A stretch of 24,000 bases of DNA from Thermodesulfovibrionia bacterium (lineage in GTDB: Bacteria > Nitrospirota > Thermodesulfovibrionia > JACRGW01), in contig CAKKSD010000010.1 in NCBI GenBank assembly GCA_919902995.1, positions 2,646 to 26,645 on the forward strand, in the 5' to 3' direction. This document shows, in pieces, positions 1 through 14,807 of this stretch (position 1 is its first letter; each line of letters starts with the position of its first letter). The translations under genes and the position numbers were made by a program. A model generated the notes under the pieces. It was given only the letters and a program-made list of their open reading frames with translations, searched no databases and was not told the DNA's origin.

Positions 1-75
1 CCTGAATGGGTCAAGTTCCCTTTTTCTCTCTTCACTTATAAGTATATCAATATTCTTTGGATCAAACTTGTGCAT
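1..75 (-). CDS. 5' end (first 25 codons) of a probable class I SAM-dependent methyltransferase; the gene runs off the window start
   Basis: The minus strand reads ATG(75..73) MHKFDPKNIDILISEERKRELDPFR, with an AAGGAGGG Shine-Dalgarno at 79-86. The H-x-FDP...S-x-ER...LDP opening matches how I remember many small SAM methyltransferases starting. Only 25 codons are visible. Confidence 0.4.
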   Translation of the reverse strand, partial: MHKFDPKNIDILISEERKRELDPFR

Positions 76-90
76 TGTCCCTCCTTACCC

Positions 91-180
91 GAACAATTCC
101 CCCTGTAATTTCTGGCTTGTAATGGCCGATGGCTCGTAGGGAATGCTCGGCATCAGGGTAAAAGGTCTTTTTACTTTCAT
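91..180 (-). repeat. Junction-repeat (JR) copy A: leader part plus left-half core (CTACGAG+CCATCGGCC) plus tail, ending just upstream of the methyltransferase SD
   Basis: Aligns by eye with 3119-3239 and 2125-2190. Shared strings on the + strand are caatttctggcttgt(g/a)atggccgatggctcgtag and aaggtcttttt..ttcat. Confidence 0.65.
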
Positions 181-303
181 ATCATAGTAACTCTTTGTAT
201 TTCAAATATAATTCCCCTTCTTCCCAATTATGCTTATTATAAGTAGCATATTTGTGGAACGTTGTAAAGGGCTTTATATTTAAAGGAGTTACGCTTTCCT
301 GAT

Positions 304-353
304 TACAATTATCCCCTAAATGCCTTATCAAGTCTACGACCAATAAGGAATAC
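304..353 (-). repeat. JR copy with right-half core only (GTCTACGA at 332-339) plus tail
   Basis: + strand caattatcccctaaatgccttatcaagtctacgaccaataaggaatac aligns with 3076-3120, 2912-2950 and 4958-4990. Confidence 0.55.
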
Positions 354-404
354 AATTACGCCTACCCCTCTAATGTTTTGCTACTTATTTAAAACACTCT
401 TTTC

Positions 405-433
405 TTGACAATACTAATACAAATAGCTAAAAT
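405..433 (+). promoter_or_regulatory. Sigma70-type promoter for the protease operon
   Basis: TTGACA (405-410), a 17-nt spacer, then TAAAAT (428-433). It lies 30 nt upstream of the ATG at 463. Confidence 0.5.
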
Positions 434-462
434 TTGACCATACCGCAATTGGATGAGACTAT

Positions 463-1485
463 ATGAATAGGGAAACAAGAATACAACTTATTAAAGAAAT
501 TGGAAAAGACCGAGGTTCGCGAGTTTTATGTTATCTAACAGGTGATCGGCGAGGATTTGAAACTCGCATTGCTCCAGATGTCTTTCCATTGCTTTACGAA
601 CACCTGTCCAAGGTTGGAAAGACCAAATCAATAGATCTTTTTTTATATAGTACAGGTGGTATTACTATAGCAGGTTGGGGGTTAGTAAATCTTATCCGTG
701 AATTTTGTGATAAATTTTCAGTCATTATTCCATTTAAAGCTCATAGTACAGCTACATTAATTGCTTTGGGTGCGAATGAAATAATTATGTGTAAACCTGG
801 TCAATTGAGCCCTGTTGACCCCTCAATAACTTCTCCCTATAATCCTGTAGCTCCTGGGATACAACAGCCAGGGGGAGTAAATCTCTTGCCGGTCAGCGTT
901 GAGGATGTTATTGCTTATTTAAGTCTTGCTAAGAAAGAGGCTGAATTAAAAGATGAGCCATCTATTGCAGAAGTTTTTAAGATTCTTTCAGAGAAAGTCC
1001 ATCCTCTTGCATTAGGGAGTGTATTCCGTGCAAGAGAACAAATAAAGTTATTGACAGAAAAACTTTTAGGCTTTCATATGCCTAAGGCTCAAGAAAAGAA
1101 AATTGGTAAAATTATTTCTACTTTAACAAAAGAGTTATATTCTCATGATTATTTAATTGGCAGAAAAGAAGCAAAAAACACTATTAAATTGAAAGTCATT
1201 GATGTAAAACCAGAATTAGAAAATAAAATCTGGCATCTATATAAGGCATATGAAAATATGTTAGAATTAAATATATCATATAATCCAGATACTTTTTTGG
1301 GAAATGAAGAACAAAAAATTGGGCGTTTTAATAGAGCCGTGATAGAATCCGAATTTATAACTGATGTCTTTATTACTGAAAGAGAGATTAAAAAGGTACA
1401 AGTCTCACAGCCAGGTATGCCTATACCAATGACGGGGGTTCAAGAAAGAACGATAAGTGAAGGTTGGGTAAGAGAAAGTTTTTAA
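463..1485 (+). CDS. SDH-family ClpP/SppA-fold serine protease (Clp-fold serine proteinase, Pfam SDH_sah-like)
   Basis: 340-aa ORF. The N-terminal half (VLCYLTGDRRG...IDLFLYSTGGITIAGWGLVNLIREFC...IIPFKAHSTATLIALGANEIIMCKPGQLSPVDP) matches my memory of the SDH family Clp-fold proteinases, including the H-S nucleophile context. Confidence 0.7.
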   Translation: MNRETRIQLIKEIGKDRGSRVLCYLTGDRRGFETRIAPDVFPLLYEHLSKVGKTKSIDLFLYSTGGITIAGWGLVNLIREFCDKFSVIIPFKAHSTATLIALGANEIIMCKPGQLSPVDPSITSPYNPVAPGIQQPGGVNLLPVSVEDVIAYLSLAKKEAELKDEPSIAEVFKILSEKVHPLALGSVFRAREQIKLLTEKLLGFHMPKAQEKKIGKIISTLTKELYSHDYLIGRKEAKNTIKLKVIDVKPELENKIWHLYKAYENMLELNISYNPDTFLGNEEQKIGRFNRAVIESEFITDVFITEREIKKVQVSQPGMPIPMTGVQERTISEGWVRESF

Positions 1486-1500
1486 TAAAGGAGGCTTAAA

Positions 1501-1752
1501 ATGCATGTAAGCACTGCAGGATTAGCTACAGCCAGATTATATGAAACTACCGGTGAAAAAAGGATTGAAATTAAAGAGGCACCCGTTTTAGTTAAAATAA
1601 AACTCAAGTCCTATAATAATGTTATTGGGTTTTACTTGCTAATGTTAGCTGGTAATGTTTTTTGTTTGCCTGATAACACTTACATCATCCCTGAAGGTAA
1701 CCTTCGTATCCTTGATAGCTATCGAATAACTTACGAAATAGTTGATTCTTAG
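1501..1752 (+). CDS. Small hypothetical protein (83 aa), second gene of the protease operon
   Basis: Strong SD AAGGAGG at 1488-1494, 6 nt before the ATG and 15 nt after the protease stop. No domain recognised. Confidence 0.6.
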   Translation: MHVSTAGLATARLYETTGEKRIEIKEAPVLVKIKLKSYNNVIGFYLLMLAGNVFCLPDNTYIIPEGNLRILDSYRITYEIVDS

Positions 1753-1773
1753 GTTGTCAGAGAAAACAATTGA

Positions 1774-2085
1774 GTGAAAGTATACGATATTTATCTTCCT
1801 TTAAGATATAACGATGATAGAGAAATTGAACCATCAAAATTTGATCAAACTAGAAAAGAACTTATAGATAGATTCGGAGGACTATCAGTATTACCAAGTC
1901 AAGGTGCAACAATAGAAGGTTGGTGGAGATTTAAAGAAGAAATAGTTAGAGATGAAATACGAATTTTCCGAGTCTTCACTGGATCTGAAGATGATGATTT
2001 TTGGAAGAAGTATAAGACTATTTTAAAAGATCGATTCCAGCAAGAAGAGATTTTTATTTTATCTTATGATGTTTCTATAATATAG
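1774..2085 (+). CDS. Hypothetical protein (103 aa), third gene of the protease operon
   Basis: GTG start directly after an in-frame TGA, 21 nt after the previous stop, with a weak SD. The sequence MKVYDIYLPLRYNDDREIEP...FGGLSVLP...EGWWR...IFRV resembles a conserved small protein type I recall only as hypothetical. Confidence 0.5.
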   Translation: MKVYDIYLPLRYNDDREIEPSKFDQTRKELIDRFGGLSVLPSQGATIEGWWRFKEEIVRDEIRIFRVFTGSEDDDFWKKYKTILKDRFQQEEIFILSYDVSII

Positions 2086-2124
2086 ATAACGCAACCTTCC
2101 TGGTTTTTATGTCATTAATCGCTA

Positions 2125-2190
2125 TTCATACAAACAACTCCCCCTGCAATTTCTGTAATATCTTTTGTTGCAATTTCTGGCTTGTGATGG
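2125..2190 (-). repeat. JR copy B (tail part only), truncated 29 nt from the hepT stop
   Basis: + strand ttcatacaaacaactccccctgcaatttctgtaatatcttttgttgcaatttctggcttgtgatgg is near-identical to 3153-3220. The homology ends abruptly at 2190. Confidence 0.65.
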
Positions 2191-2219
2191 AGTTGAAAAT
2201 CTGTACCTTATCCTAATTG

Positions 2220-2561
2220 TCATGGCTCGCTATCAGTTATCGTTTTTATGTCTCTTAGTAAATCGGGGAGCTTATTTTTGATAATATCCCACATAATCTT
2301 ATGGTTTATTCCAAAATATTCATGGATAAGAACATTCCTGAAATCAGATATTTTCCTCCATTCAATAAAAGGATATTTGTCCTTTATCTCCTGTGGTATT
2401 TTGCTTGATGCCTCTCCTATTATTTCAAGATTTCTCAAAGTGGCATCTATCCTCATTCTATCCTTTTTAAGCTCCTCAAAGGTAAGATTGCCCACATAGC
2501 CCTGAATGTTTTTTGCAGATTCCAGAATATCCTCAAGATAAAGTAGATAAGTCCTACGCAT
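2220..2561 (-). CDS. hepT: HepT (DUF86/HEPN) RNase toxin of a type VII HepT-MntA pair
   Basis: 113 aa with the R-x4-H-x-Y motif (FRNVLIHEY). It overlaps the upstream nucleotidyltransferase gene by 8 nt. Confidence 0.9.
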   Translation of the reverse strand: MRRTYLLYLEDILESAKNIQGYVGNLTFEELKKDRMRIDATLRNLEIIGEASSKIPQEIKDKYPFIEWRKISDFRNVLIHEYFGINHKIMWDIIKNKLPDLLRDIKTITDSEP

Positions 2562-2838
2562 AGACTACTTCCTGTAAGATATCATCTTTTAACTGAGGTT
2601 TGAGTGCCTCAACGGTTACTAAATCCACTTTTCTCCCAAATAAGTCTTCAAGGAAATACTTGAGGTCCATATAATTGTCGAAGGTCTCATATCCATCTTC
2701 CAACTCGATAAGAACATCAATATCGCTTCCCTTTTTCCCCTCACCTCTTGCAAAGGAACCGAAAATACCTATCTTTTTTACACCATATTTTTTCTTTATG
2801 GCGCCTTCTTGTCTTTTCAGTATTTCAATTGCATTCAT
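2554..2838 (-). CDS. mntA: MntA minimal nucleotidyltransferase antitoxin
   Basis: 94 aa with the GIFGSFARGE...GSDIDVLIE (G-S-x10-D-x-D) nucleotidyltransferase signature. SD GAGGGG lies upstream. Confidence 0.9.
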   Translation of the reverse strand: MNAIEILKRQEGAIKKKYGVKKIGIFGSFARGEGKKGSDIDVLIELEDGYETFDNYMDLKYFLEDLFGRKVDLVTVEALKPQLKDDILQEVVYA

Positions 2839-2877
2839 TTTTTACCCCTCTCTTCTATCTCAAGGTCTTTGACCCTT

Positions 2878-2906
2878 ATTTTACCTGCTATCAGAAGGGA
2901 AAGCAA
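2878..2906 (-). promoter_or_regulatory. Candidate promoter for mntA-hepT
   Basis: The minus strand reads TTGCTT (2906..2901), a 17-nt spacer, then TAAAAT (2883..2878), about 40 nt upstream of the ATG at 2838. Confidence 0.35.
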
Positions 2907-2911
2907 AGATT

Positions 2912-2950
2912 TTCCTTAAACACCTTATCCGGTCTACGACTCATAGAGGA
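2912..2950 (-). repeat. JR copy with a near-complete palindromic core (2933-2947) plus tail
   Basis: + strand tctacgactcataga has 7-1-7 arms with one mismatch. The tail ccttaaacaccttatcc aligns with the other copies. Confidence 0.6.
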
Positions 2951-3011
2951 TGCACGGCTGCCCTTGAAACACTTCTGGGTCAATTGTAATCCTGTCTAAG
3001 GTTTTAAACAT
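2934..3011 (-). pseudogene. Truncated DUF433-like gene (N-terminal about 21 codons) fused to the JR core
   Basis: A GGAGGTGG SD is followed by ATG(3011) MFKTLDRITIDPEVFQGQPCI, then LYES*. The R-I-x-x-DP-x-x-x-x-G-x-P-x-I string is the DUF433 opening, but the expected (R/K)GTRI... continuation is missing. Confidence 0.5.
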
Positions 3012-3075
3012 TGTTCCACCTCCTCGTTCCTATTCTAACATCAAATAAGCTGGTTTCAAAATTAAAATATATCTA

Positions 3076-3239
3076 CAACTCTCCCTTAACCGCCTTGTCG
3101 AGTCTATGACCCATTGGGAATGCCCGGTAGCAGGGCGTAAGGTCTTTTTTATTCATTCAAACAACTCCTCCCCCTGCAATTTCTGCGAAATCTTCTGCTG
3201 CAATTTCTGGCTTGTGATGGCCGATGGCTCGTAGAGAGG
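3076..3239 (-). repeat. JR copy C: two tandem units (3076-3118 right-half core + tail; 3119-3155 leader; 3156-3239 left-half core + tail with an internal caatttctg duplication)
   Basis: Aligns with copies A and B nearly base for base across caatttctggcttgtgatggccgatggctcgtagag, and with 304-353 across ctcccttaaccgccttgtcgagtctatgac. Confidence 0.65.
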
Positions 3240-3297
3240 AGATGTGGTCTGAGATTATCTGGTCGATTAATTCTCTGAGGGCATTATTAACCAGCTT

Positions 3298-3531
3298 TCA
3301 CGCTGCGTGAGTTAAAGATCTGACTGAAATTATATCTGCTGGCTCAACAGGTCTGACTTCTTTATCAGATATTGTAACAACTGCAAGCGTTTCTCCTGAG
3401 GCCTTCACAAACTCGACCTCAAGACCGTCAGGCTCGTAAACCTCTACAACAGTCCCTAAATCCCCAGAACGCAATCCAAAATCAGGTAAATCGTGTATCA
3501 AGACTACACAATCCAGTAGTTTATATTTCAT
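3298..3531 (-). CDS. DUF4926 domain protein (77 aa)
   Basis: MKYKLLDCVVLIHDLPDFGLRSGDLGTVVEVYEPDGLEVEF... fits the DUF4926 pattern as I remember it. It starts 11 nt after the upstream gene ends. Confidence 0.7.
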   Translation of the reverse strand: MKYKLLDCVVLIHDLPDFGLRSGDLGTVVEVYEPDGLEVEFVKASGETLAVVTISDKEVRPVEPADIISVRSLTHAA

Positions 3532-3542
3532 GACTTTCTCTC

Positions 3543-4247
3543 TTAACTTTTAAAACCTTCCATTAAATAACTACCATACCACTTCATATATTCTTCAGTT
3601 TCTTGATCTAAAATTTTACCATTCACAAATTTTAACAGATGGCATAGTAATACCCAATATGGTTCCTTCGAAAGGCATACAGGTTTCTTTTCGCCATAAC
3701 AGAAAAAGGGGTCTAAGCAGTTTCTAATCACAGGCTGAATCATTTCAAACCTTATTGCAGATTCTTCAGGGCAACCGTTTATATCAGGAGGCATATAAAA
3801 TAAGCTTGGATATAAAAATCCCTGGGTTTTTATTATCATTTCCTGGCTATGTGCTGGTTTAAAAGTAAATATAGGTGCGCAAATTAAATATTCTTGAGGA
3901 TTGTCTTTAAACCAACCACTCTCTACACGACCTAATACTACAACAAGTCTACGTTTGCCCTTATAAACATAGAAAAGCTCGCCTTCGCGCAGTTTAAGTT
4001 CTTTTACTGGATAATGTTTTTCATCACCATCGCTATAAGGGCTAATAGCAAATGTAGTGTTTCTTTCATTTCGTGGGTCATATTTAATCATTTTCAGAAT
4101 TTGAGGATGTGTTTCGGGATATGCTATGTGAGAATAAAATAGTTGACCAGGGCGAAAAGCCCAATCATCATCAGGATCTTGGAGAATTTCGTAAAAAGGG
4201 TCATATATTAAATCGACAGAGCCTCTACGAGTCATCCTTTCTTTCAT
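3543..4247 (-). CDS. Uncharacterised 234-aa protein, putative toxin partner of the Panacea-domain protein
   Basis: Its start overlaps the upstream gene by 23 nt. Faint MazF/PemK-like strings are present (GELFYVYKGKRRLVVVLGR ... YLICAPIFTFK). The assignment is inference only. Confidence 0.55.
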   Translation of the reverse strand: MKERMTRRGSVDLIYDPFYEILQDPDDDWAFRPGQLFYSHIAYPETHPQILKMIKYDPRNERNTTFAISPYSDGDEKHYPVKELKLREGELFYVYKGKRRLVVVLGRVESGWFKDNPQEYLICAPIFTFKPAHSQEMIIKTQGFLYPSLFYMPPDINGCPEESAIRFEMIQPVIRNCLDPFFCYGEKKPVCLSKEPYWVLLCHLLKFVNGKILDQETEEYMKWYGSYLMEGFKS

Positions 4248-4911
4248 TCTCCAAGCTTACAGTCACCTGTCCTGCCAACCTGTTATTTGATATTTCATCA
4301 TCCCACACTTTTATACAGTCGAGGTACCCTTTATCTGTAATCTGAAATGTCGGTTCTATTTTAGAGATCTTTTTTATATGAGGAAGGTATTTATTTTTTA
4401 AGGCAGATAATTTCTTTTTGTCTATACGAACATTTTTAACTTTTTCAGGAGACTCCCAGGGTTTTATCTTTGTAAAATCTAACAACTCCCCTCTCTTCGC
4501 ATCCCTCATAGGCTCTGTTTCGAAATAGACATAGTCTAATAATTTATTTAAATCGATATCACCCCATTCTTTGACTACATGATCAATAAGTCTTTTTGCA
4601 TCTGAAGAGAGGTAGATTTCAACCTCTTCTTTTACAAGGCCGTATTGACTGCCAAGTTTACCGCCACCTAAGACGAATGGTATTTCATCTAAATCGGGAG
4701 AGCCAAGAATCGACTCGATTTCGGATGTATAAGGCCCATAATGGTAAAACTGCCATTTCAAATCTGTAAGTCGTTTCTGATGGTGTTTGTAATATTCTAT
4801 CTCAATTAAATAAAGAAGTTTAATAAGTCTCGTTTTCGCAGGAATATTAACATCCTGCTCTTTTGCAGATTTGATGATTTGTTGAATCATGCTCAGCACA
4901 ACTGATTGCAT
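4225..4911 (-). CDS. SocA/Panacea (DUF4065)-domain protein, putative antitoxin
   Basis: 228 aa. The N-terminal KTRLIKLLYLIEIEYYKHHQKRLTDLKWQFYHYGPYTSEI matches the K-L-x-K-L-L-Y...GP(V/Y) Panacea/DUF4065 pattern. Confidence 0.65.
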   Translation of the reverse strand: MQSVVLSMIQQIIKSAKEQDVNIPAKTRLIKLLYLIEIEYYKHHQKRLTDLKWQFYHYGPYTSEIESILGSPDLDEIPFVLGGGKLGSQYGLVKEEVEIYLSSDAKRLIDHVVKEWGDIDLNKLLDYVYFETEPMRDAKRGELLDFTKIKPWESPEKVKNVRIDKKKLSALKNKYLPHIKKISKIEPTFQITDKGYLDCIKVWDDEISNNRLAGQVTVSLENERKDDS

Positions 4912-4957
4912 TTAGTCTTATTTTATCAGAAATTTGGAGAAAAAACTTTTATTTTCT

Positions 4958-5008
4958 TATAATTCTCCCTTAAATGCTTTATCCAGAATACTCGGTATCA
5001 GGGCATGA
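4958..5008 (-). repeat. JR copy (tail plus part of the leader; core deleted)
   Basis: + strand tataattctcccttaaatgctttatccagaatactcggtatcagggcatgac aligns with 3076-3140 and 129-160. Confidence 0.5.
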
Positions 5009-5124
5009 CTCGATTCTTGAAATATATCTGTCCCTTTTTCAGTACAAATTACCAGAATCAAAAAGCAATTTATTAAGTCTGTGATTGTAGGATGTAAATA
5101 TGATGCACATGAAATGATGTACTA

Positions 5125-5547
5125 TTATTTAGATTTTTCTTTAGAAATATATTTATCTATTCTTTCCTCAAGCCTATTGATTCTTTCATTGATTGATTGT
5201 TTTAGTTCTCTGAGATTGGAGTTTGTATGGTTAAGACCTTCTTTTAAAGAAGTATAGTTAGAGACTATAACACCTACGAATATCAAAATTCCTATTATAC
5301 CCCCAACAATGCCTATGATATAGTGGGTTTTTGTTAGTTTTTGCCCCTCTTTAACTGGTTCTTTTGTTAATTGTAGAGGGGCTTGTTCGATGGGTGGAAT
5401 TTTATCTGTTCCATCTAATGCTTCAATAATCGGTATTTCTGTTTCTGCAGTGCTGGAAACCTGTTTCGTAGCAAGTCCCTTACGATAGTCTGACCTCACT
5501 AATTCCTTTGTCTTTCTTCTTGGCGGATTTATTCTTTTACTACCCAT
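5125..5547 (-). CDS. Single-pass membrane protein (140 aa) with a C-terminal coiled coil
   Basis: It has a basic N-terminus, one hydrophobic span (YIIGIVGGIIGILIFVGVIVSNY), then the heptad-like LRELKQSINERINRLEERIDKYI. It overlaps the upstream gene by 8 nt. Confidence 0.6.
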   Translation of the reverse strand: MGSKRINPPRRKTKELVRSDYRKGLATKQVSSTAETEIPIIEALDGTDKIPPIEQAPLQLTKEPVKEGQKLTKTHYIIGIVGGIIGILIFVGVIVSNYTSLKEGLNHTNSNLRELKQSINERINRLEERIDKYISKEKSK

Positions 5548-6283
5548 GAATTTTCTTTACCTCTTCCAGATTAGAAAGATTTGATTTTTTAAGATGCGTA
5601 TCCCAATATTCAATAGTTTCGTTAAAATGGTTTTCGATTAAAACGTTTTTTAAAGTTCTCTGAGGTTCATAATATATTTGGTAGTCAACAATTAATCTAA
5701 TCCTGTCAGGTGGTTTTGTTTCTCCTTCTTCAGTTTTATCCGAGTTAATTTGAATAATCACATTTTTATAGTCTTGTTTTTCTTCTGGATTGACTATTGC
5801 CTCAATAGCAGGGTTTTTAAGAGCAAGTCTCAGAACTAAATTATCCGGGATACCTTTTAGATCAAGGTTTAATAGATTTGTAAAAATAGTCTTGGCTGCG
5901 TTCTCATAACCTTGAAAAAGAAATTGGTTAATTATACCTATTCTATTAATACTTTCAGAACCGCCTGTCAATGGAAGTATTATGTTAACTATCTGTAAAA
6001 ACATTTTTGTAATATCTTCAATGGTTAATTTGGGTTCTGCGTCCATATCACAGGTTAAAATTACTCCGTCTATATTACAATTAACAGAAATAGTGTTTTC
6101 TTTATCGTAAAGAATTATTGACATATTATCAGGCCTTCCAATACGCTCGAAACAATTACCAGGAAATGGGCCATAGCCCTGTAATGGGGCAAGTTTATCA
6201 ACAATTTCTCCAAGAAAATCAGAAACTCTAAATAATCTTTTATGCCGTATTCCAACTATTAGTTTTTCAGAATGCCATTCCAT
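5540..6283 (-). CDS. Uncharacterised 247-aa soluble protein
   Basis: AAGGAG SD before the ATG at 6283. There is only a faint resemblance (INRIGIINQF) to the TIGR04255-type R-I-G-L-R-Y motif, so the protein is not confidently assigned. Confidence 0.6.
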   Translation of the reverse strand: MEWHSEKLIVGIRHKRLFRVSDFLGEIVDKLAPLQGYGPFPGNCFERIGRPDNMSIILYDKENTISVNCNIDGVILTCDMDAEPKLTIEDITKMFLQIVNIILPLTGGSESINRIGIINQFLFQGYENAAKTIFTNLLNLDLKGIPDNLVLRLALKNPAIEAIVNPEEKQDYKNVIIQINSDKTEEGETKPPDRIRLIVDYQIYYEPQRTLKNVLIENHFNETIEYWDTHLKKSNLSNLEEVKKIHG

Positions 6284-6309
6284 TTTATGCTCCTTTTCAA
6301 AGATGTTTT

Positions 6310-6318
6310 ATTATAACA
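6310..6318 (-). promoter_or_regulatory. Extended -10 promoter element for the 247-aa/140-aa pair
   Basis: The minus strand reads TGTTATAAT (TGnTATAAT), about 27 nt upstream of the ATG at 6283. Confidence 0.35.
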
Positions 6319-6424
6319 GATTTATTTTCTCACACTTTAACAGCCATATTTTTAAAAATCAATAGAAATGTAAAATTTATTTCTGCTCTTGCTCTTTATC
6401 TGAAATTATCTATTCTATTATTGT

Positions 6425-7951
6425 TCACCTTCTGAACCTGTTCCTTACAGCAAGGGCAAAGAGGGCGGCTTGTAGGGGAATAAGCAACTTAGCAGCGATC
6501 TTTAAGAACCAATTTGAAGGAATAAAATCAGGCTTTGGTTCAAAAGTAGTATACTGCAACGTAGCTTTTAAGTAGTCCAAGTTCCAGATTTCAGACAACT
6601 CTCGAATTTTAATGACATCATCAGTATATAAAGATTTTATTCCTGTTAAGCCTAAAATAACAGATATAGCAATTATCAGTAAAACGAGTACGATTCCCGC
6701 TCTTAAAGGTCTTTCACCGTAACCGCTCGAAACCCAATAAAGATTTAAGAGATAAAATGAGAAGTTTTTCCAACTGCTTCCTTTTCTTTGCATTTCCTTT
6801 TCGCCATAATGCCAGTTAGAGACTTCATATTCGTTGTGGTCCTCTTTGCATTTTTGTTTAAGCTGTCGATAAAGGGTTTCTACTTTTTCGATTTTAGTCT
6901 TAAAATCCTTATCCTTTTTATTTTTGAAAAGTTCAATTTCATCATATAAAACTTTTCGCCCATCTTTCTTAGGAGGCCACTTGCAGTTTATAAAATCAAA
7001 TTTTCTTAAATCGGAATCCAAGAAGGAGATTGCTTCGAGATTGGCTCCTTCAAATCTGATCTCCTTTTCTATATCGAGAATTGTAAATTCTCCATCATTA
7101 ACAAATTCGCTCTTAAAAAAGTTTGCTTCTTTGACGAATGTAGCATGCCGGAAGTGTGCTTCTCCACCAAATATAGTCCATGCAAAGTCTGCCTCTTCTT
7201 TGAATTTAACATTAAAGAAATTTACTCTCCTAAAGAATTTAGCGTCTGAGAAGTCTGTCTTTTCGATGAATTCAGCCCATGGAAATTCTGCCTCTTCGCA
7301 AAACTCTGCTTTTGAAAAATTCGCCTTTCCATTAAATATAGCCTGGTGTCCATCAGATGAAAAATTTGCCTTTTTAAAGAATTTGGCCTTAGAGAAATCT
7401 GCCAATTGGTTAAATGTAGCCCCTAAGAAGTCTGCCTCTTTGTTGAATATTGACTTTAAAAAGCTTGCTTTTTCGTTAAAGGTGGCATATGCGAAGACCG
7501 TATTTTTGTTAAATTTAGCTTCTGAAAAGTTTGCATATTTACGAAATATGGCTGAAAAAAAGGATGCATTCCCCAGAAATGTGACTAGGAAAAATGCCTC
7601 ACTGTCGAACATAGCTCTTGAAAAGTCTGTATCATCGCTCAAAGTACCTATGAACCATGCTCGTCCGCTGAATGTAGACGATGAAAAGTTAAGACCAAGT
7701 AGAAGATTGTCTTTGCCTAGATCAAAGGTTATATCTCCTTCAAAAACTGTACCTGATAAATTACAGGATTTACTCTCTTTATTTGCTTCATCAATTCTTT
7801 CAAAAATGAGTTTATTAAAATCTTGGAGTGTTATACCCTTTTCTCCTTTAGGTGCATGAAAGATACAATACTCATTGTCTTCTACATCTTTGTAACCAAC
7901 AACAGAAAGATCTCTACACCACTTATATTCTTCAGCCTTACAGCAGGGCAA
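6425..7951 (-). CDS. Pentapeptide-repeat protein with a Cys/His-rich N-terminus and C-terminal transmembrane helices
   Basis: 508 aa with a TTG start (7951..7949) and a GGAGG SD. A long run of A(D/N)(L/F)xx-type repeats (ANFSEAKFNKNTVFAYATFNEKASFLKSIFNKEADFLGATFNQLADFSKAKF...) covers about 7021-7774. The N-terminus is MPCCKAEEYKWC...EYCIFHAPKG. Hydrophobic spans are AGIVLVLLIIAISVILGLTGI and FLKIAAKLLIPLQAALFALAV. Confidence 0.85.
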   Translation of the reverse strand: MPCCKAEEYKWCRDLSVVGYKDVEDNEYCIFHAPKGEKGITLQDFNKLIFERIDEANKESKSCNLSGTVFEGDITFDLGKDNLLLGLNFSSSTFSGRAWFIGTLSDDTDFSRAMFDSEAFFLVTFLGNASFFSAIFRKYANFSEAKFNKNTVFAYATFNEKASFLKSIFNKEADFLGATFNQLADFSKAKFFKKANFSSDGHQAIFNGKANFSKAEFCEEAEFPWAEFIEKTDFSDAKFFRRVNFFNVKFKEEADFAWTIFGGEAHFRHATFVKEANFFKSEFVNDGEFTILDIEKEIRFEGANLEAISFLDSDLRKFDFINCKWPPKKDGRKVLYDEIELFKNKKDKDFKTKIEKVETLYRQLKQKCKEDHNEYEVSNWHYGEKEMQRKGSSWKNFSFYLLNLYWVSSGYGERPLRAGIVLVLLIIAISVILGLTGIKSLYTDDVIKIRELSEIWNLDYLKATLQYTTFEPKPDFIPSNWFLKIAAKLLIPLQAALFALAVRNRFRR

Positions 7952-8015
7952 TTAAATACCTCCGAGGATTATTCCCTTAAATATTAACTATCTAAAATTC
8001 CCCCCTCACCCCCGC

Positions 8016-8036
8016 CCTCTCCCGCAAGGGGAGAGG
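8016..8036 (-). terminator. GC-rich hairpin just downstream of the RM gene (candidate terminator or REP-like hairpin)
   Basis: cctctccc-gcaag-gggagagg forms an 8-bp stem 14 nt after the stop at 8050. On the minus strand it is followed only by a weakly T-rich tract. Confidence 0.4.
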
Positions 8037-8049
8037 ATTGAGGATCGAA

Positions 8050-11000
8050 TTACGTCTTTAAAATCCCCCTCACTATCCCATCAATCTCTTTAATCTCCTC
8101 TTGCAGTTCAGCCTTTATCATTTTTCTCAGATTGCCGATGGATGCTGAAACGAGTTCAGCACAAGTTTTTGTGGGAGTGCCTTTTGAGAGGAGCTTTGAA
8201 ACCTTCTTTGTGCATTCTTCGCTGAGTCTTGCAAGTTCGATATGGTCTTTATTTGATGAGTCGAATTCGGGGATTGGGAGTTCCCAGACTTTTTTAACGA
8301 TATGCCTTGGTCCAAAAAGCCCTCTGGCTTGCATTGGTTTTAAGCGTTCATCAATTGTAGGAGAGTTGAGGATCGAACAAAGATAATAAGCCTCAGGCTT
8401 TTTATTTGTCTCATAATAGTACTCGGTATAATCAGACACAAACTCCTGAAGCTCAAATTCCTGATCTTCAATCTCTATTTTTATTTCCTTTCTTTCGACC
8501 ACACACCCACACAAATATGTTGCTGATGTTGGGTATAAAACCTTATATTTAGCCTGCCTTTGCTCTGTCAACTTATGCCTGTAATCAAGCCAGTCAACGG
8601 CATCCATGCTTTCCGCCTTCTCTCCTCTTTTCTCTTCCCACAATTTCTGTGCCTTATGGAGCCATTTTGAGAGATGGACGAAACCTTTTTTGCTTGCCTT
8701 AGATTCTTTTATGATAAGGTATTCCCCTGATTTGTCATGCTGAACTCGTTTCAGCATCTCTTGAGACCCTGAACCAAGTTCAGGGTGACATTTTAGATCA
8801 ACTAAGGGGAGCACAACAACCCTGAAATCAAGATAGCCGAATGGCACTATATCAGTCGAAAGGAGGGTTGCATAAAGAAATTCCTTCTCAATATTTCCCT
8901 TCAAAGATATTCCTTTGTAGGTTTCTTTCGCAGTCTTTTCAGAAGCCTCTGATGTCTCGACATAAGGCGTTGATGGGTTAATCCCGAACATCGAATGGGA
9001 TTTTATATCCACGAACCAGAAATTGCGAGGGACGATTGTAGCGCCTTGTTTGAACGCTGTATGATAGGGACTCCGCTGTATTCCAATATTTCCTTCTTCG
9101 GATTGTGAGAGAAAACTCCTCTCGCCTTTAATGCTTACATATAGATTCCCTTCGTCAACTTTTAAAGATTCTTCCGCCTCGATAAGTCCCGTATTTTTAC
9201 TTTCAAGAATCCCTGATATAAATTCAGCCTTATATGGCGAAACCGTGCCAATCCCTTTCTTTGCGATAAAAACAGATGTCGGGACATTGAATAAGGGCTT
9301 GACCTTCTCTATATCCCATATCTCGGTAAATCCAAGTTTTAGCGGATACTGCTGGCTTCTAAAGGTATGGTGCTGATCCGCAGTAAATATACTCCTCGGC
9401 ATTATGAACGCAATCATTCCTCCATTCTTGAGGTAGAGGTCCGCGGTTCGCAGATAAAACAATGTTGCAAGCTCCATATGGGTAATCAACTCAGCCTTAA
9501 CCTTCATCTTTTCGCCTGCAGATACGCCGCTGAGGAGTTTGTATGTATTCACAATCATTTCCTTCAGAAACTTCTGGTATTCGCTTTTATCAACATAACG
9601 ATAACTAAGCCACGGCGGATTGCCGATGATGACGTCAAACCTCTCTTTGAGGAATAATGGCTTGTACATATTTTTCATAATATATGCCCAGATGCTGTCC
9701 TTTTCTTCCTCAATAAGCTCTTTCATCGCAATCGCTGTGTAGAAGAGCATATCAATAGTATTTTTGTCGCTGACCTCCGGAATATGCTGTCTCAAAAAGT
9801 TTTCATAAGTTTCAAGGGTCGTTCCCCCCTTGCCTGCAAAATGTTTTGCAAATTCTTTTGTAGTGTCTATAACGGAGTCGTATGTTGAAGGGTCATTGAT
9901 TATAGTGTCAGGGATATATACATCCTTTTCAGCAATTTTTGTATGATAACTTGGAACACGGGTCAGCAAACTATGCTCCATCTTCTCTTCAGGCGGGTTT
10001 ATGGAGTCTGCAAGATACACAGGGATCTGAACCCTCTTCGTGCCTCTTTTTTTAATAAGGTCTCCGAGGGCAAGGAGATAATTGGTCTTTGCAGTGATTA
10101 CAGCAAGGGGATGAATGTCAATGCCTACAACGTTATTGATTATATGTTCAAGGGTTTCCTGAGTTTCATAGAATTCTGTCTTTTGACTCGTTGGAGATAA
10201 CTTTTTTGTTCCAAGTGCATGCCTTTTAAATCTTATGGCCATGTAAAGGAATGTCCCCGAACCGCAGGAAGGATCGAGGACAGAAACGGAGGGATCGTCC
10301 TTTAGAATATGCTCCACCATCCTCTGCGCAAGCCAGTCAGGTGTATAGTATTCTCCGAGGTCATGTCTTGTTTCAGGGTCAACAAGTTCCTGATAAAGGG
10401 ATTTCAGGATGTCTTCTGAAAGTTCTCTCAGGTTGTAATTTGCGAGCTGGTTAATCAGTTTTCTCGAAATATCAAGTCCTGTCTCTTTGGTTTGCTCTCT
10501 TACAATCCATGAAAAGAAGTCCTCTTCGAGGAAGTTGTCAATCCCCTGCTCGATGAAGAATTCGCCCTCAAGGATTTTAATAATTATTTCTGAAGAGGGA
10601 ACCGCGCTGTTTTCCGAAAGACGCATATAGACAATGAGCTTTGTAAATACTGCAAGGTAGGAATGTCTGAGAAAAAGTTCTTCATCTGCGACAAGACTTC
10701 CGTAGGTAATCCTCAGATACTTTTGCCAGTTATCGTATATGACCTTAAAATCGCTTCTGTCCTTTAGATTATTCCATGTTCCTTTAAAGACATTAAGGCT
10801 ATATCTGAAGGCAGGGCTTTTTATTCCGAAGTCCCTGACTATTTCTTCGGTCTTAGGATGAAGCTGCGTTTTTCTGAAGAAATATCTGTCAAGCCAGAAA
10901 TACGCTTGATATGGTTCTATCTTTGTTAAATCTATCTTTTCTATCTCCTCAAGCTCGACCTCATTATTGGTTTTTATCTTGGGCAAATAGGCATAAAATA

Positions 11001-11406
11001 AAATCCCGTCTGTCGCAAGGCATAAGTAGCTTGCCTTCTCTCCTGCCTGTATAAGATAGGATGTATAGCGTTTTAATTGTTGCGCTGCTTCATTCAGGCT
11101 TTTTCTTAAATCCTTCTCGAATTCTATTATCAGATTGCCGTAAAGGGCATCGATCTTGCCTCTCAGGATAATATCCTTCTGCTTTATGCTTACATACTTT
11201 TCAACACCATGAAGATAGTCCTCAACAAATCCGGCATCAACATTCTCAAAGATGTCTTTTAATAAGATAAGAAACCTCTGGGCTTTAGCAGGTTCGGTAT
11301 TTAACTGTGAGATTTGCTCTATGTATTCTTTAAATTTCTGAGATATGTTCTGCTCTGAGATGTCAGGTATTCTTGAAGGCTTTTCGGTGAGTTTAGTCTT
11401 CTTCAT
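8050..11406 (-). CDS. Fused type IIG-like restriction-modification enzyme (N-terminal nuclease-like domain, gamma-class N6-adenine methyltransferase, C-terminal target-recognition domain)
   Basis: 1118 aa. It carries GEYYTP (motif X), VLDPSCGSGTFL (motif I, aa 376-387) and FDVIIGNPPW (motif IV, aa 590-599). The N-terminal GKIDALYGNLIIEFEK is like the D...E-x-K nuclease motif of MmeI/Eco57I-type enzymes. The C-terminal YYLCSILNSP...WELPIPEFD resembles an HsdS/TaqI-like recognition domain. Confidence 0.8.
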   Translation of the reverse strand: MKKTKLTEKPSRIPDISEQNISQKFKEYIEQISQLNTEPAKAQRFLILLKDIFENVDAGFVEDYLHGVEKYVSIKQKDIILRGKIDALYGNLIIEFEKDLRKSLNEAAQQLKRYTSYLIQAGEKASYLCLATDGILFYAYLPKIKTNNEVELEEIEKIDLTKIEPYQAYFWLDRYFFRKTQLHPKTEEIVRDFGIKSPAFRYSLNVFKGTWNNLKDRSDFKVIYDNWQKYLRITYGSLVADEELFLRHSYLAVFTKLIVYMRLSENSAVPSSEIIIKILEGEFFIEQGIDNFLEEDFFSWIVREQTKETGLDISRKLINQLANYNLRELSEDILKSLYQELVDPETRHDLGEYYTPDWLAQRMVEHILKDDPSVSVLDPSCGSGTFLYMAIRFKRHALGTKKLSPTSQKTEFYETQETLEHIINNVVGIDIHPLAVITAKTNYLLALGDLIKKRGTKRVQIPVYLADSINPPEEKMEHSLLTRVPSYHTKIAEKDVYIPDTIINDPSTYDSVIDTTKEFAKHFAGKGGTTLETYENFLRQHIPEVSDKNTIDMLFYTAIAMKELIEEEKDSIWAYIMKNMYKPLFLKERFDVIIGNPPWLSYRYVDKSEYQKFLKEMIVNTYKLLSGVSAGEKMKVKAELITHMELATLFYLRTADLYLKNGGMIAFIMPRSIFTADQHHTFRSQQYPLKLGFTEIWDIEKVKPLFNVPTSVFIAKKGIGTVSPYKAEFISGILESKNTGLIEAEESLKVDEGNLYVSIKGERSFLSQSEEGNIGIQRSPYHTAFKQGATIVPRNFWFVDIKSHSMFGINPSTPYVETSEASEKTAKETYKGISLKGNIEKEFLYATLLSTDIVPFGYLDFRVVVLPLVDLKCHPELGSGSQEMLKRVQHDKSGEYLIIKESKASKKGFVHLSKWLHKAQKLWEEKRGEKAESMDAVDWLDYRHKLTEQRQAKYKVLYPTSATYLCGCVVERKEIKIEIEDQEFELQEFVSDYTEYYYETNKKPEAYYLCSILNSPTIDERLKPMQARGLFGPRHIVKKVWELPIPEFDSSNKDHIELARLSEECTKKVSKLLSKGTPTKTCAELVSASIGNLRKMIKAELQEEIKEIDGIVRGILKT
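8141..8161. repeat. Hairpin repeat (tgctgaa-acgag-ttcagca), a perfect 21-bp inverted copy of 8738-8758
   Basis: The reverse complement of 8141-8161 is tgctgaactcgtttcagcatc, identical to 8738-8758 when checked base by base. Confidence 0.7.
8733..8790. repeat. Double-hairpin palindromic element embedded in frame in the RM gene (aa 873-892, CHPELGSGSQEMLKRVQHDK)
   Basis: Hairpin 1 is atgctgaa-ctcgt-ttcagcat (8737-8757). Hairpin 2 is accctgaac-caa-gttcagggt (8766-8786). The outer tgtca (8733-8737) and tgaca (8786-8790) are inverted. The peptide motif resembles translations of small palindromic repeats I have seen in many genomes. Confidence 0.6.
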
Positions 11407-11820
11407 CTATAGTTTTCTTTCCTTAATAAAATCTTCTGGAGTAATAATTTCAATATCTTTGTATTTCTTCACAGACAGCAAACTCTTATCACCTGTGATT
11501 ACAAATTTTGCATTAGCGGATAGGGCACATTCAATGAACTTGTTATCTTCTGGATCATTTGTAACTTTAAGATATTTTTTATAGGCGTAAATATCAGAAT
11601 ATGCAAGAACAAATTCTAAAATGTTTGTCTGAATCTCTTGAGGGAATTCAAGTTTTGGATAAGAAACAGAACGACTAAGCTCGGCGAGTATCTCTGAAGA
11701 AATACAATTTCTTATAACACCTTTTTCTAATAACCCGATGATTTTTAAAGGCTTGCCACCCCATCCAAAAGCTGAAATGAAAATATTTGTATCAATTACT
11801 ACTTTTTCGCCCTTGCCCAC
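11407..11820 (-). CDS. vapC: PIN-domain toxin (TIGR00305-like)
   Basis: 137 aa with VVIDTNIFISA at the N-terminus and a C-terminal FVITGDKSLL motif. Its stop codon TAG (11409..11407) directly abuts the RM gene ATG (11406). Confidence 0.8.
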   Translation of the reverse strand: MGKGEKVVIDTNIFISAFGWGGKPLKIIGLLEKGVIRNCISSEILAELSRSVSYPKLEFPQEIQTNILEFVLAYSDIYAYKKYLKVTNDPEDNKFIECALSANAKFVITGDKSLLSVKKYKDIEIITPEDFIKERKL

Positions 11821-12026
11821 TTAACAGCCTCTTCTGCAACCTTCGATGGAAGCTTTTTACTTTTTGTAATTTCCGAGGCTTTCTTATATATGCTTTTTGC
11901 AGTCGGAGGATAAAATAGTTTTTGTTGGATCAAGGAGTCCATTATATCTTTTATTTCCTTAAATGAAAGGGTTGAAAGCCCTTGCACTAAATTTTCTTTG
12001 GATAGTTTTATGGCTACTTCAGGCAT
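11799..12026 (-). CDS. Putative antitoxin partner of the PIN toxin (75 aa)
   Basis: It overlaps the PIN gene by 22 nt and has an AAAGGAGGGG SD upstream. No domain is recognised, so the call rests on position. Confidence 0.5.
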   Translation of the reverse strand: MPEVAIKLSKENLVQGLSTLSFKEIKDIMDSLIQQKLFYPPTAKSIYKKASEITKSKKLPSKVAEEAVKWARAKK

Positions 12027-12039
12027 ATACCCCTCCTTT

Positions 12040-12121
12040 TTATTCTTTATTATATTCCTTTACCACCTGATTAACAATTCTTCTTGCAATCTCAAATGCT
12101 GCTGCAATTCTGATAATCTTA
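12040..12121 (-). pseudogene. radC: Start-less 3' fragment of the radC N-terminal-domain ORF (KIIRIAAAFEIARRIVNQVVKEYNKE*)
   Basis: By hand alignment, 12065-12121 matches 12911-12967 at 50 of 57 positions. It begins exactly at the stop of the DUF2283 gene, in a different frame. Confidence 0.6.
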
Positions 12122-12334
12122 AGCAACAACTTTTTCTTTACTTTTGAGCTCGTAAACTATCTCCTGAGGGTCTGATATCTGTTCTGAGGCATCGAGGATT
12201 TCCATGGATACAATTTTTCCGTCCTTACTGTAATCTATAATCATGCCCTCTCTTACTTCATCGCTTTCAGCTATCTGGTCTTCTCTAAAGATAAGGCTTA
12301 GCGTATCAGTTTCTGGATCAAATATGACCTTCAT
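12119..12334 (-). CDS. DUF2283 family protein (71 aa), no adjacent toxin
   Basis: MKVIFDPETDTLSLIF...IIDYSKDGKIVSMEILDAS is the typical DUF2283 pattern. Confidence 0.75.
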   Translation of the reverse strand: MKVIFDPETDTLSLIFREDQIAESDEVREGMIIDYSKDGKIVSMEILDASEQISDPQEIVYELKSKEKVVA

Positions 12335-12358
12335 TTATCCACCTCCACCCAATATTTG

Positions 12359-12384
12359 CTGATTCTTCTTGAAATCTCAAAGGC
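12359..12384 (-). repeat. Degenerate third copy of the radC 3' fragment
   Basis: ctgatt-cttcttgaaatctcaaaggc aligns with ctgattaacaatccttcttgcaatctcaaaggc (12913-12945), with a 7-nt gap and one mismatch. Confidence 0.45.
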
Positions 12385-12392
12385 CTTTATTG

Positions 12393-12599
12393 TTATTTTT
12401 TACCTGTAAGAGATACCTCTATGGGATGATCTTTAAGAGAACTTACTTTTAGTATCGAGAACCCAATAACATTGCCTTCCATATCAACCTTTTCCATTAT
12501 CTGGTCAGATTCTGTTTCTTTGAAGTAACCTTCCTTCTTTTCGAACATAACCTCAAGATAATCTCCTTCAGGGTCATACCATACTTTTACTTTCTCCAT
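12393..12599 (-). CDS. DUF2283 family protein (68 aa), putative antitoxin
   Basis: KVWYDPEGDYLEVMF...DMEGNVIGFSILKVS is the DUF2283 pattern. It overlaps the upstream gene by 13 nt. Confidence 0.75.
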   Translation of the reverse strand: MEKVKVWYDPEGDYLEVMFEKKEGYFKETESDQIMEKVDMEGNVIGFSILKVSSLKDHPIEVSLTGKK

Positions 12600-12892
12600 A
12601 TCACATCTCCTTTTTTAATGCTATCTGTAAAATAGGCTGTGACAATAAAGGCATCAGCCTCTTTATATTTTACCACAATGCAAAGATATTTATTCCCTAT
12701 AGAAAGATTCTCATAATATCTGGAACATAACCTCACTTTTTCATCGGTTCTTGATTTAACAACAATATCAGGACTTGAAAGAGTCTCGTTTATTTTTTCA
12801 GTATGTATGACCATCTCAGGATGCTCTTTTATATGGGCGAGCCTTTCCTCCGTCAGGCGTATAATGTTTCCATTATAGTCAGTTAAATTCAT
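12587..12892 (-). CDS. Putative toxin (101 aa), possibly a RelE/BECR-fold nuclease-like protein
   Basis: IRLTEERLAHIKEHPEM...TLSSPDIVV...KYLCIVVKYKEADAFIVTAYFTDSIKKG resembles small DUF2283-associated toxin-like proteins. Fold assignment is from memory only. Confidence 0.45.
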   Translation of the reverse strand: MNLTDYNGNIIRLTEERLAHIKEHPEMVIHTEKINETLSSPDIVVKSRTDEKVRLCSRYYENLSIGNKYLCIVVKYKEADAFIVTAYFTDSIKKGDVIWRK

Positions 12893-13182: not shown

Positions 13183-13286
13183 AAAATCTTCTTAAAAACT
13201 TCATTTACCCTCAACTCTCCCTTTTCCCTGCCAGAAAATTAGCCTTAGTAAATTTAGTTGTTTTTCAATTTCAAAAAATGCTATAT

Positions 13287-13984: not shown

Positions 13985-14018
13985 TTTTTCACCTCCATCC
14001 ACTTCTTGTCCTACAATA

Positions 14019-14047
14019 AGTCTACAATATAGCTATAATTCTGTCAA
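14019..14047 (-). promoter_or_regulatory. Candidate promoter for the Phd-PIN pair
   Basis: The minus strand reads TTGACA (14047..14042), a 17-nt spacer, then TAGACT (14024..14019). Confidence 0.4.
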
Positions 14048-14050
14048 CAT

Positions 14051-14805: not shown

Positions 14806-14807
14806 AT

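Follow-up and report, generated by a model that had tools for sequence, protein, structure and literature searches.

Short repeats in the gaps between gene modules of a Thermodesulfovibrionia bacterium are pseudogene remnants of the 3′-terminal coding ends of restriction–modification (R–M) specificity genes. They lie in a stretch of 24,000 nucleotides (nt), hereafter called the window (NCBI GenBank assembly GCA_919902995.1, contig CAKKSD010000010.1, positions 2,646 to 26,645 of the forward strand). An earlier note, made from the letters of the window alone, described one repeat family that always runs on the minus strand and took its members for att-like sites left behind by tandem site-specific integration. 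Placement and orientation are as that note reported for seven of the nine copies it listed, all of which are minus-strand and intergenic. Two weak traces at 13208–13232 and 7968–7985 are not reported by our subtype-1 profile search at E ≤ 10. The units are gene ends instead of att-like sites, and they probably record genes being replaced and inserted one after another through general recombination at a defence hotspot, in which the repeats are both scars and recombination anchors.

The repeats are ends of R–M genes

The family comprises two subtypes that have different tails. Subtype 1 (copies B, D, E2, F and G) preserves the last ~18–25 codons of a Type I hsdS gene (..DLDALMPSILDKAFKGEL-Ter, where Ter marks a stop codon), and subtype 2 (copies C and E1) preserves the last ~20–45 codons of a gene for a ~1,170-amino-acid (aa) Type IIG restriction-methylase, which we call RM-A (..SDHISSITSQKLQNKILQKLQGELFG-Ter). 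The copies in the window, all on the minus strand and all in intergenic gaps, are listed here with the E values of the subtype-1 nhmmer profile where it reports them.

85–180, minus strand: copy A, a hybrid composed of an hsdS-type leader (..KRPFTLMPSI), then CCCTACGAG plus CCATCGG, then the Type IIG tail AITSQKLQGELFG-Ter
301–360, minus strand: copy B, an hsdS-type 3′ remnant with the 16-nt insert CCTTATTGGTCGTAGA and the tail ..RRLDKAFRG-Ter (2e-12)
2121–2190, minus strand: copy C, a Type IIG (RM-A) 3′ remnant, SITSQKLQQKILQKLQGELFV-Ter, without a start codon
2902–2974, minus strand: copy D, an hsdS-type remnant that carries the insert CTCTATGAGTCGTAGA and is joined at its 5′ part to a truncated DUF433 gene (2.8e-16)
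3069–3152, minus strand: copy E2, an hsdS-type remnant that retains the leader and has a degenerate form of the 16-nt insert, CCCAATGGGTCATAGA (3.1e-20)
3153 to ~3293, minus strand: copy E1, an RM-A 3′ remnant of ~45 codons (..ALRELIDQIISDHISS / ITSQKLQQKISQKLQGEELFE-Ter), interrupted by the 16-nt insert CTCTACGAGCCATCGG
4955–5008, minus strand: copy F, an hsdS-type remnant without insert that reads in frame to ..HALIPSILDKAFKGEL-Ter (1.1e-11; also matched to HsdS C-termini by tblastn)
14051–14111, minus strand: copy G, a decayed remnant of hsdS type in which CTCTACGAGTCGTAGAC is exact at 14085–14101 (weak, 0.034)

The subtype-1 profile reports E2, D, B and F at E values from 3e-20 to 1e-11, which are partly circular because these four copies are also its seeds; it reports the leader of copy A at 3.5e-4 and copy G at 0.034. 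Pattern counts likewise place the copies far above chance. A 17-nt pattern for what the earlier note called the core has two sites in the window where 0.01 are expected, and each tail pattern has an expectation of 0.00.

The cleanest subtype-1 copies (F and those of related loci L004, L010 and L031) read ..(K)DLDALMPSILDKAFKGEL-Ter. A tblastn search with KKDLDALMPSILDKAFKGEL gives 89% identity to the end of HsdS from a Vibrio campbellii plasmid (..ELEALMPSILDKAFKGELI-Ter) and 70% to HsdS from Leptolyngbya (..ELNALLPSILSKAFKGEL-Ter). Both matches finish 0–1 residue short of the stop codon, and thus at the extreme C-terminus. Because the subtype-1 peptide is an HsdS C-terminus, the sequence described earlier as an optional leader corresponds to the preceding hsdS codons. 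No subtype-1 unit in the window or the related loci ends an open reading frame (ORF) of more than 56 codons, as is expected of remnants and not of intact hsdS genes. A derivation of the leader from DUF433, considered on account of the residues PC.R, was rejected: the register differs between D and E2, and the true leader seen in locus L006 is hsdS sequence.

Subtype 2 can be traced to complete genes. The minus-strand translation of C, E1 and the tail of A ends ..ITSQKLQQKILQKLQGELF-Ter, and a degenerate 23-nt pattern for this subtype retrieves 37 loci from JGI and ENA metagenomes. At about half of these loci the tail terminates either a gene of full length or an ORF whose start lies beyond the contig edge. 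Complete RM-A proteins span 1,161–1,177 aa (L011, 1,175; L023, 1,161; L045, 1,177) and end ..IDRIISDHISSITSQKLQNKILQKLQGELFG-Ter, with the general form ..SDHISSITSQKLQNKI[LM]QKLQGELF[GK]-Ter (L023 stops after ..GELF). They carry N6_Mtase, Eco57I and MmeI_Mtase domains (PF02384, PF07669 and PF20473 in L011), and the L011 protein matches the PADLOC model REase_MTase_IIG at 1e-48. At the remaining loci, a tail fragment of 23–52 codons lies directly behind unrelated genes. The 5′ truncation point of these fragments varies from 0 to ~100 nt upstream of the conserved tail start, and most of them have no start codon.

The earlier statement that indels break every reading frame, leaving no conserved peptide, fails for much of the family. 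Copies A, C, E1 and F and their relatives read in frame as protein C-termini, and the frame is broken only in copies with a 16-nt insert. Copy C differs from its counterpart in strain variant L008 at 10 tail positions, with eight synonymous codon changes, one Val-to-Gly change and a different stop codon. In 15 distinct fragments, synonymous changes make up 83% of the codon differences that lie beyond the search pattern, versus 77% in 12 full-length gene ends, a fraction to be read with the caveat that an exact-pattern scan favours well-preserved copies. Because the changes in both comparisons are mostly synonymous, the description of every frame as broken is wrong for the family as a whole. 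The ending AGGG(G/A)GA.TTGT common to the two tails consists of Gly-Glu-Leu codons.

Individual copies abut their neighbours in different ways. The Type IIG tail of copy A lacks an internal 24-nt duplication, and this copy forms a 31-codon ATG-initiated ORF located 9 nt upstream of a methyltransferase start at position 75. Copy C is truncated 29 nt past the HepT stop codon, copy E1 begins right behind the DUF4926 stop codon and copy G is the end of a 41-codon ORF (..EIDKQLKLTKAKFLYES-Ter; 14051–14212, minus strand). The 27-codon ATG ORF of copy E2 is probably fortuitous.

Wider searches recover almost nothing outside this setting. A scan of 185,579 species genomes with the subtype-1 pattern gives one match, at 297–323 of L002 from a Ruminococcus metagenome-assembled genome, which is probably due to chance (32 nt at 91% to copy B, in apparently G+C-rich coding sequence). 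Two pattern scans of viral contigs give no match, and neither does tblastn against plasmids with the in-frame insert variant and the RM-A tail as queries. Neither a chimeric tail peptide nor a 42-aa fragment of L024 finds a candidate in word-index protein searches. For the 31-aa ORF of copy A, an exhaustive HMMER search of 1.84e9 representative proteins yields no genuine homologue; its two matches are unrelated proteins of repetitive sequence. Scanned against Pfam and NCBIfam, the short peptides give only a weak DUF433 match.

The core is a length-variable segment of the coding tail

The division of each unit into leader, core and tail, as first described, is roughly right, but there are two subtypes with different tails, and a MAFFT alignment shows the core to be a 16-column indel relative to units that lack it. 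It occupies one site in the hsdS tail (..AGCATT^CTGGATAAGG..). The insert is absent from that site in F, L004, L010, L017, L023 and L031, and is 16 nt long in B, D, E2, G and two units of L037. In L016 it measures 18 nt and in L024 21 nt, both in frame (..SILVASRRLNMAIKGES-Ter and ..SILFASRFRLDKIFKGEL-Ter, respectively), and L036 and L046 each carry two insert units, ~32 and 37 nt in all. The related 16-nt insert CTCTACGAGCCATCGG breaks the RM-A tail in E1, L031 and L033. The core behaves as a stretch of varying length within a coding tail and not as a fixed crossover core. Candidate sources of the 16-nt insert are a tandem duplication of neighbouring codons, a heptad-length variant of the helix at the HsdS C-terminus, of which the in-frame 18- and 21-nt versions in L016 and L024 would be examples, and a hairpin-type scar of break repair.

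The claim of hybrid half-sites holds for copy A, in which the left part of subtype 1 and the right part of subtype 2, in the variant with this related insert, are joined at CTACGAG, and the 9-mer common to the two subtypes is real.

Two Type IIG genes are alleles of one slot

When ORFs of the 37 metagenome loci are labelled against the proteins of the window, a conserved order emerges: UPF0758_N, sometimes small genes of DUF2283 type, RM-A or RM-B, and then variable genes. This defence and toxin–antitoxin (TA) hotspot is syntenic across many groundwater and sediment metagenome contigs, and its small cassettes are TA-like. In the window the slot is occupied as follows.

8050–11406, minus strand: intact Type IIG R–M gene RM-B, in the slot held by RM-A in other genomes

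Each gene leaves traces where the other resides. RM-A tail fragments are located downstream of RM-B in L033 and L036, and RM-B tail fragments lie directly past the RM-A stop codon in L020, L024, L042 and L044. RM-A and RM-B are alternative alleles of a single slot that follows UPF0758_N.

DNA identity among RM-A alleles is 0.5–0.6 in the variable region, rises to 0.75–0.95 over the last ~580 nt and falls to 0.3–0.45 right after the stop codon. Because of this fall, the tail is the last homology before the variable region. Subtype-1 units are always co-oriented with the RM-A tail and lie downstream of it, except for an extra unit in L037.

A third tail type is also observed, consisting of the last ~14–16 RM-B codons (EIKEIDGIVRGILK). 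It follows RM-A tails directly, in many cases with a change of frame (L020, L024, L027, L030, L036, L038, L042, L044 and L046). At five loci (L016, L019, L028, L037 and L042) the same gene of ~250 aa (ending ..YEEMKSLKRLVESLVR-Ter) precedes the RM-A tail fragment. At four of these five an ATG overlaps its stop codon (ATGA) and opens a 30–38-codon ORF (MNFHNDHISSITSQKLQ..), and L019 is without the ATG; the arrangement may be fortuitous or may represent a coupled small ORF. Within the RM-B gene of the window there is a perfect 21-nt inverted repeat (arms 8141–8161 and 8738–8758, with 576 nt between them), one arm of which encodes ..CAELVSAS.. in the C-terminal tail. This inverted repeat is missing from the RM-B homologues of L033 and L036, and could be an inversion switch or a relic of rearrangement.

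Strain variants reveal two types of junction

Strains do differ at the repeats, as had been proposed, because similarity to the window ends at or in a repeat in the three variants recovered, all of them contigs with proteins identical to those of the window: L006 at 2958 in copy D, L008 at 2175–2190 and 2121 in copy C, and L004 at 5006 at the edge of copy F. The breakpoints do not fall in the core, where the earlier note proposed to look for them. Position 2958 is in the leader, 2175–2190 is at the tail start and 5006 is at the edge of the unit.

L006 is identical to the window from 2958 to 106, and upstream of 2958 a more complete hsdS leader comes after the 3′ end of a pentapeptide-repeat gene. 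At the same breakpoint, the window has a truncated gene joined to copy D at a common 10-nt sequence, GCCGTGCATC.

2934–3011, minus strand: truncated DUF433 N-terminus (MFKTLDRITIDPEVFQGQPCILYES-Ter), 26 codons (PF04255, E = 0.0057, profile positions 1–14)

This joint is a microhomology junction. L008 exhibits the other type. It has a single difference from the window over 2716–2175, dense differences from 2174 onward (11 in the tail, 2174–2123) and no similarity beyond 2121. Because the density of differences jumps at 2174, the crossover can be placed inside the conserved start of tail C (2175–2190). A 10-nt microhomology fusion and a homologous crossover in a tail are not what tandem site-specific integration predicts, and that proposal is not supported. 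That the copies come from ordinary genes and have decayed is an outcome that the earlier note had set against its own reading, although the breakpoint polymorphism among strains that it looked for does exist.

L008 also carries, at its positions 592–816, a 74-aa fusion ORF in which a MAGTFTHWMIVEE.. start is joined at GA(G/A)GAA to the last ~55 residues of RM-B; MAGTFTHWMIVEE is the start of the gene that follows a 140-aa gene in L034 and L035.

A second gene leaves the same footprint

Partial duplicates of another gene of the hotspot, UPF0758_N (12889–13182), are also found. Its two 3′-end duplicates share one orientation, are located between DUF4258/DUF2283 cassettes and make up a second family of junction repeats, absent from the list in the earlier note.

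12055–12120, minus strand: UPF0758_N 3′-end duplicate (88% over 66 nt), translating as LKIIRIAAAFEIARRIVNQVVKEYNKE-Ter (also read LKIIRIAAAFEIARRIVNQV..), between a DUF2283 cassette and the next gene
12362–12384, minus strand: shorter UPF0758_N 3′-end duplicate (91% over 23 nt), between two DUF2283 genes
14808–14905, minus strand: UPF0758_N 5′-part duplicate (80% over 98 nt), a 43-aa gene matching PF20582, on the upstream side of the hotspot

In L011 and L032, UPF0758_N abuts RM-A directly, an arrangement that looks like an empty state. Because a second gene leaves the same footprint as the R–M tails, the pattern points to a general recombination process rather than to one dedicated site. The 14808–14905 fragment forms 43–54 codons upstream of a 203-aa ORF, and a Logan contig of the same strain ends ~350 nt from there, inside that ORF (window position 14451).

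Searches for dedicated recombination systems

The earlier note saw neither an attC signature nor a recombinase in the window, and both negatives hold in our tests. No tyrosine or serine recombinase was found in the window or in ~290 kb around the 37 related loci, as judged by phmmer searches of six-frame ORFs in which the annotated resolvase of a control plasmid locus was found at 5e-21 and nothing else fell below E = 0.3. The queries were XerD, IntI1 and gamma-delta resolvase, and a positive control was lacking for the tyrosine class. These searches were added because Pfam annotation of 138 neighbouring ORFs, restricted to the best 25 families, cannot exclude a single recombinase.

A simple pattern for attC boxes (RYYYAAC..GTTRRRY, 50–160 nt apart), used in place of the IntegronFinder covariance model, yields four pairs in the window and none at a junction, compared with 6.4 ± 4.0 in shuffled sequences; all four are in coding DNA at 11.8–12.9 kb. 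DNA folding of eight copies on the minus strand and four on the plus strand gives none that folds better than shuffles (z from −1.41 to +0.81). In place of a fixed-length att repeat with a single crossover position, the copies in the window and related loci show variable 5′ truncation and three breakpoints outside the core.

A model for the assembly of the island

Among divergent R–M alleles, the last few hundred bases before the stop codon would be the only stretch of high identity, with unrelated DNA beyond. Because the tail would be the only high-identity DNA that such alleles share, crossovers would tend to resolve in it or next to it. Incoming DNA would then replace or insert genes by RecA-type homologous recombination at the tail, with microhomology often, or at least sometimes, closing the other end of the event. 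A second route would be the integration, through a single crossover, of a circular piece that bears a copy of the tail. Each event would leave or duplicate one tail fragment in the same orientation, so that repeated events would stack tails between cassettes, and the resulting direct repeats could in turn mediate cassette loss, gain and exchange between strains. If this model is correct, no dedicated recombinase or att site would be needed. Breaks inflicted by the R–M enzymes could drive such events, in line with the wider view of the group behind PMC2853133.

On this model, which we consider probable, the stacked tails form a fossil record of island building, each marking an earlier occupant of the R–M slot (hsdS, then RM-A, then RM-B) or an adjacent insertion, in a hotspot that can be traced across dozens of environmental genomes. 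The repeats are a known kind of recombination scar, here in an unusually legible array. Cassette modularity, and strain differences located at junction repeats, can arise from homologous and microhomology recombination without an integrase, which cautions against taking direct repeats between cassettes for att sites.

Several observations weigh against serial replacement by general recombination. The 9-nt CTCTACGAG is common to insert-bearing copies of both subtypes and copy A is joined exactly there, which chance microhomology accounts for only loosely. It is odd, under neutral decay, that the insert is exactly 16 nt long in about eight diverged copies drawn from several metagenomes, and subtype-1 units have a fairly constant apparent length. 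In L004, similarity to the window is lost at 5006, the 5′ edge of F, with divergence of 8% through F and the SocA gene to ~4221–4256 and then of 0.13% down to 1874. Because the divergence runs through F, this copy lies inside an imported tract and is not itself the crossover point. The strain variants come from short, low-coverage metagenome contigs that are possibly chimeric at repeats, the preference of the exact-pattern scan for well-preserved copies bears on the synonymous fraction given above, and the evidence on recombinases and distribution covers the window and related loci rather than the source genome as a whole.

Alternative explanations

Two other explanations are kept in contention by the common CTCTACGAG, by the hybrid nature of copy A and by an insert length that stays at 16 nt. 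In one of them, the tails are retained as anchors, and a circle consisting of a cassette and one tail loops out and re-inserts Campbell-style at any tail of the same or another genome, forming an integron-like system run by RecA. Units are indeed co-oriented in the window and at nine of nine independent loci with both subtypes, cassettes are bracketed by tails, and a fixed 3′ end with varying 5′ ends is what a Campbell product is expected to show. One crossover lies inside a tail (L008), fragments keep their peptide and stop codon intact, and UPF0758_N 3′-end duplicates flank small cassettes. However, no direct evidence speaks for circles or for selection acting on the fragments, whose preservation can be explained by exact-pattern ascertainment and young age. 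Several junctions are illegitimate microhomology joins and not tail-by-tail, and the tails that flank one cassette are often of different subtypes (D/C and F/E1). We regard a system of this kind as unlikely. Its fullest form, in which the C-terminal tails of hsdS and Type IIG genes are selected as portable homology anchors from which cassettes loop out and re-insert by RecA-dependent single crossover, amounting to recombinase-free, integron-like exchange at a hotspot common to many groundwater bacteria, strikes us as rather doubtful. Tails that served as active anchors would provide a simple way for defence genes to be shuffled. The other explanation is that of the earlier note, in which the repeats are att scars at R–M 3′ ends, with a crossover between CTCTACGAG and TCGTAGAC and a recombinase encoded elsewhere. 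The core is near-palindromic as well as over-represented, and around CTAYGAG three of the four possible pairings of a left with a right half occur (in D and G; in A; and in E1, L031 and L033). Elements are known that integrate at the 3′ ends of genes and supply a replacement copy, and strain differences fall at the repeats. Against these points stand the lack of a tyrosine or serine recombinase in the DNA searched, the absence of the core from many units, its variable length (16, 18 or 21 nt, or doubled) and core arms separated by only 1–3 nt, which leaves no normal spacer. Moreover, the breakpoints seen lie outside the core and the 5′ truncation varies, all of which makes site-specific integration very unlikely.

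The small, mostly co-oriented and TA-rich cassettes between same-orientation repeats bring to mind a CALIN, an integron array without an integrase, whose repeats would be divergent attC sites. This we consider scarcely credible, given that no junction has an R″/R′ pair (the four pairs found are fewer than the 6.4 expected), no copy folds better than shuffles on either strand, the units translate as R–M C-termini and there is no IntI-like protein. Nor do we see much prospect for the units as functional small genes or 5′ leaders that encode 27–31-aa peptides (the ORFs of A and E2, and MNFHNDHISSITSQ.. in L016, L028, L037 and L042) or provide the following gene with a ribosome-binding site. Both A and E2 form complete ORFs that begin with ATG, an ATG overlaps an upstream stop codon (ATGA) at four or five loci, and the Gly-Glu codons GGGGGAG resemble a Shine–Dalgarno sequence. 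Most fragments, however, lack a start codon, the ORFs of A and E2 use different frames of the same DNA, and searches of two large protein libraries gave no homologues. The next start lies between 9 nt (A) and ~75 nt away, and copy C faces genes on the opposite strand, which together render a functional role highly improbable. Finally, a family that is short, repeated and intergenic and that contains a small palindrome could pass for an ordinary dispersed repetitive extragenic palindrome (REP) or miniature inverted-repeat transposable element (MITE). These units derive from coding sequence, have no terminal inverted repeats and occur in a single orientation. In every locus recovered they sit in the one syntenic hotspot, and the species genomes scanned add one match that is probably due to chance; a REP or MITE origin is exceedingly unlikely.

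Comparison with known systems

Earlier work on Helicobacter pylori is said to have dealt with rearrangements linked to R–M genes. Among classes of R–M gene movement, 'insertion with long target duplication' and 'allelic substitution' have been distinguished (Furuta, Abe and Kobayashi 2010, PMC2853133). The former has no mobile-element gene, its inserts are flanked by direct target repeats of variable length exceeding 30 bp, and R–M types occur as alleles (PMC2853133). The UPF0758_N duplicates (66 and 23 nt) and the RM-A, RM-B and hsdS tails resemble this class, with L011 and L032 resembling its empty site, and the events proposed here would fit both classes. The inserts in the window are mostly TA and defence cassettes and not R–M genes, however, three types of specificity-gene tail are stacked, and flanking repeats are often of different subtypes. 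An empty-site comparison exists in outline for UPF0758_N only, with no clean one for the 91–5008 array.

The array shares with integrons and CALINs its small, mostly co-oriented, TA-rich cassettes, a single same-orientation repeat family and strain-level differences, but it has no attC boxes, hairpin or integrase in the window and its repeats are coding remnants. Tandem integrative elements at the 3′ ends of tRNA or protein genes leave displaced 3′-end copies as attL and attR, with att sites of fixed length and integrase genes. Same-orientation partial gene 3′ ends bracket acquired DNA here too, yet with variable lengths, with homology or microhomology junctions and with no integrase found. 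In the minimal mobile elements of Neisseria, variable genes are swapped by homologous recombination in conserved flanks. This comes close to the cassette-like replacement between conserved anchors, without dedicated mobility genes, that is proposed here, although the anchors in the window are gene-end remnants of 20–160 nt inside the island and not intact flanking genes. We know of no report of natural transformation in the organism of the window. Phase-variable shufflons of hsdS and Type IIG genes contain inverted partial genes with whole target-recognition domains and a linked recombinase, and generate new functional alleles. Partial copies of specificity genes beside an R–M locus are common to both, but those described here are direct repeats that span only the last 18–45 codons, are often frame-broken and have no recombinase found with them. 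Inverted repeats inside S genes are mentioned in PMC2853133.

Setting of the window

The defence and TA island occupies window positions 1–16300, with nearly all genes on the minus strand, and is followed by the core genes aconitase, mfd and ppiC. It contains an SDH-type protease operon, MntA/HepT, DUF4926, a SocA/Panacea protein and a pentapeptide-repeat protein, together with RM-B (1,118 aa), two PIN genes, a Phd antitoxin, two DUF2283 genes, DUF4258, UPF0758_N and AbiEi/AbiEii. No hsdM, hsdR or hsdS gene was found in the window, nor any tRNA or tmRNA gene, and Rfam at gathering thresholds gives no match there. Contigs with proteins that exactly match those of the window come from groundwater metagenomes (Hainich ENA assemblies, Logan ERR3858122 and JGI 3300045072), and look-ups of the exact SDH protease, Phd and a 247-aa protein return only contigs collinear with the window.

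A scan of positions 1–5400 for promoters and terminators gives overall counts no higher than those of shuffled sequences. Two individual matches are strong, a sigma-70-like TTGACA-17-TAAAAT at 405–433 on the plus strand, just upstream of the plus-strand SDH-protease operon, and a sigma-70-like TTGAAA-16-TAGAAT with a TG extension at 3059–3032 on the minus strand, upstream of the DUF433 remnant and MntA-HepT. A terminator-like hairpin is located at 3120–3138 on the plus strand.

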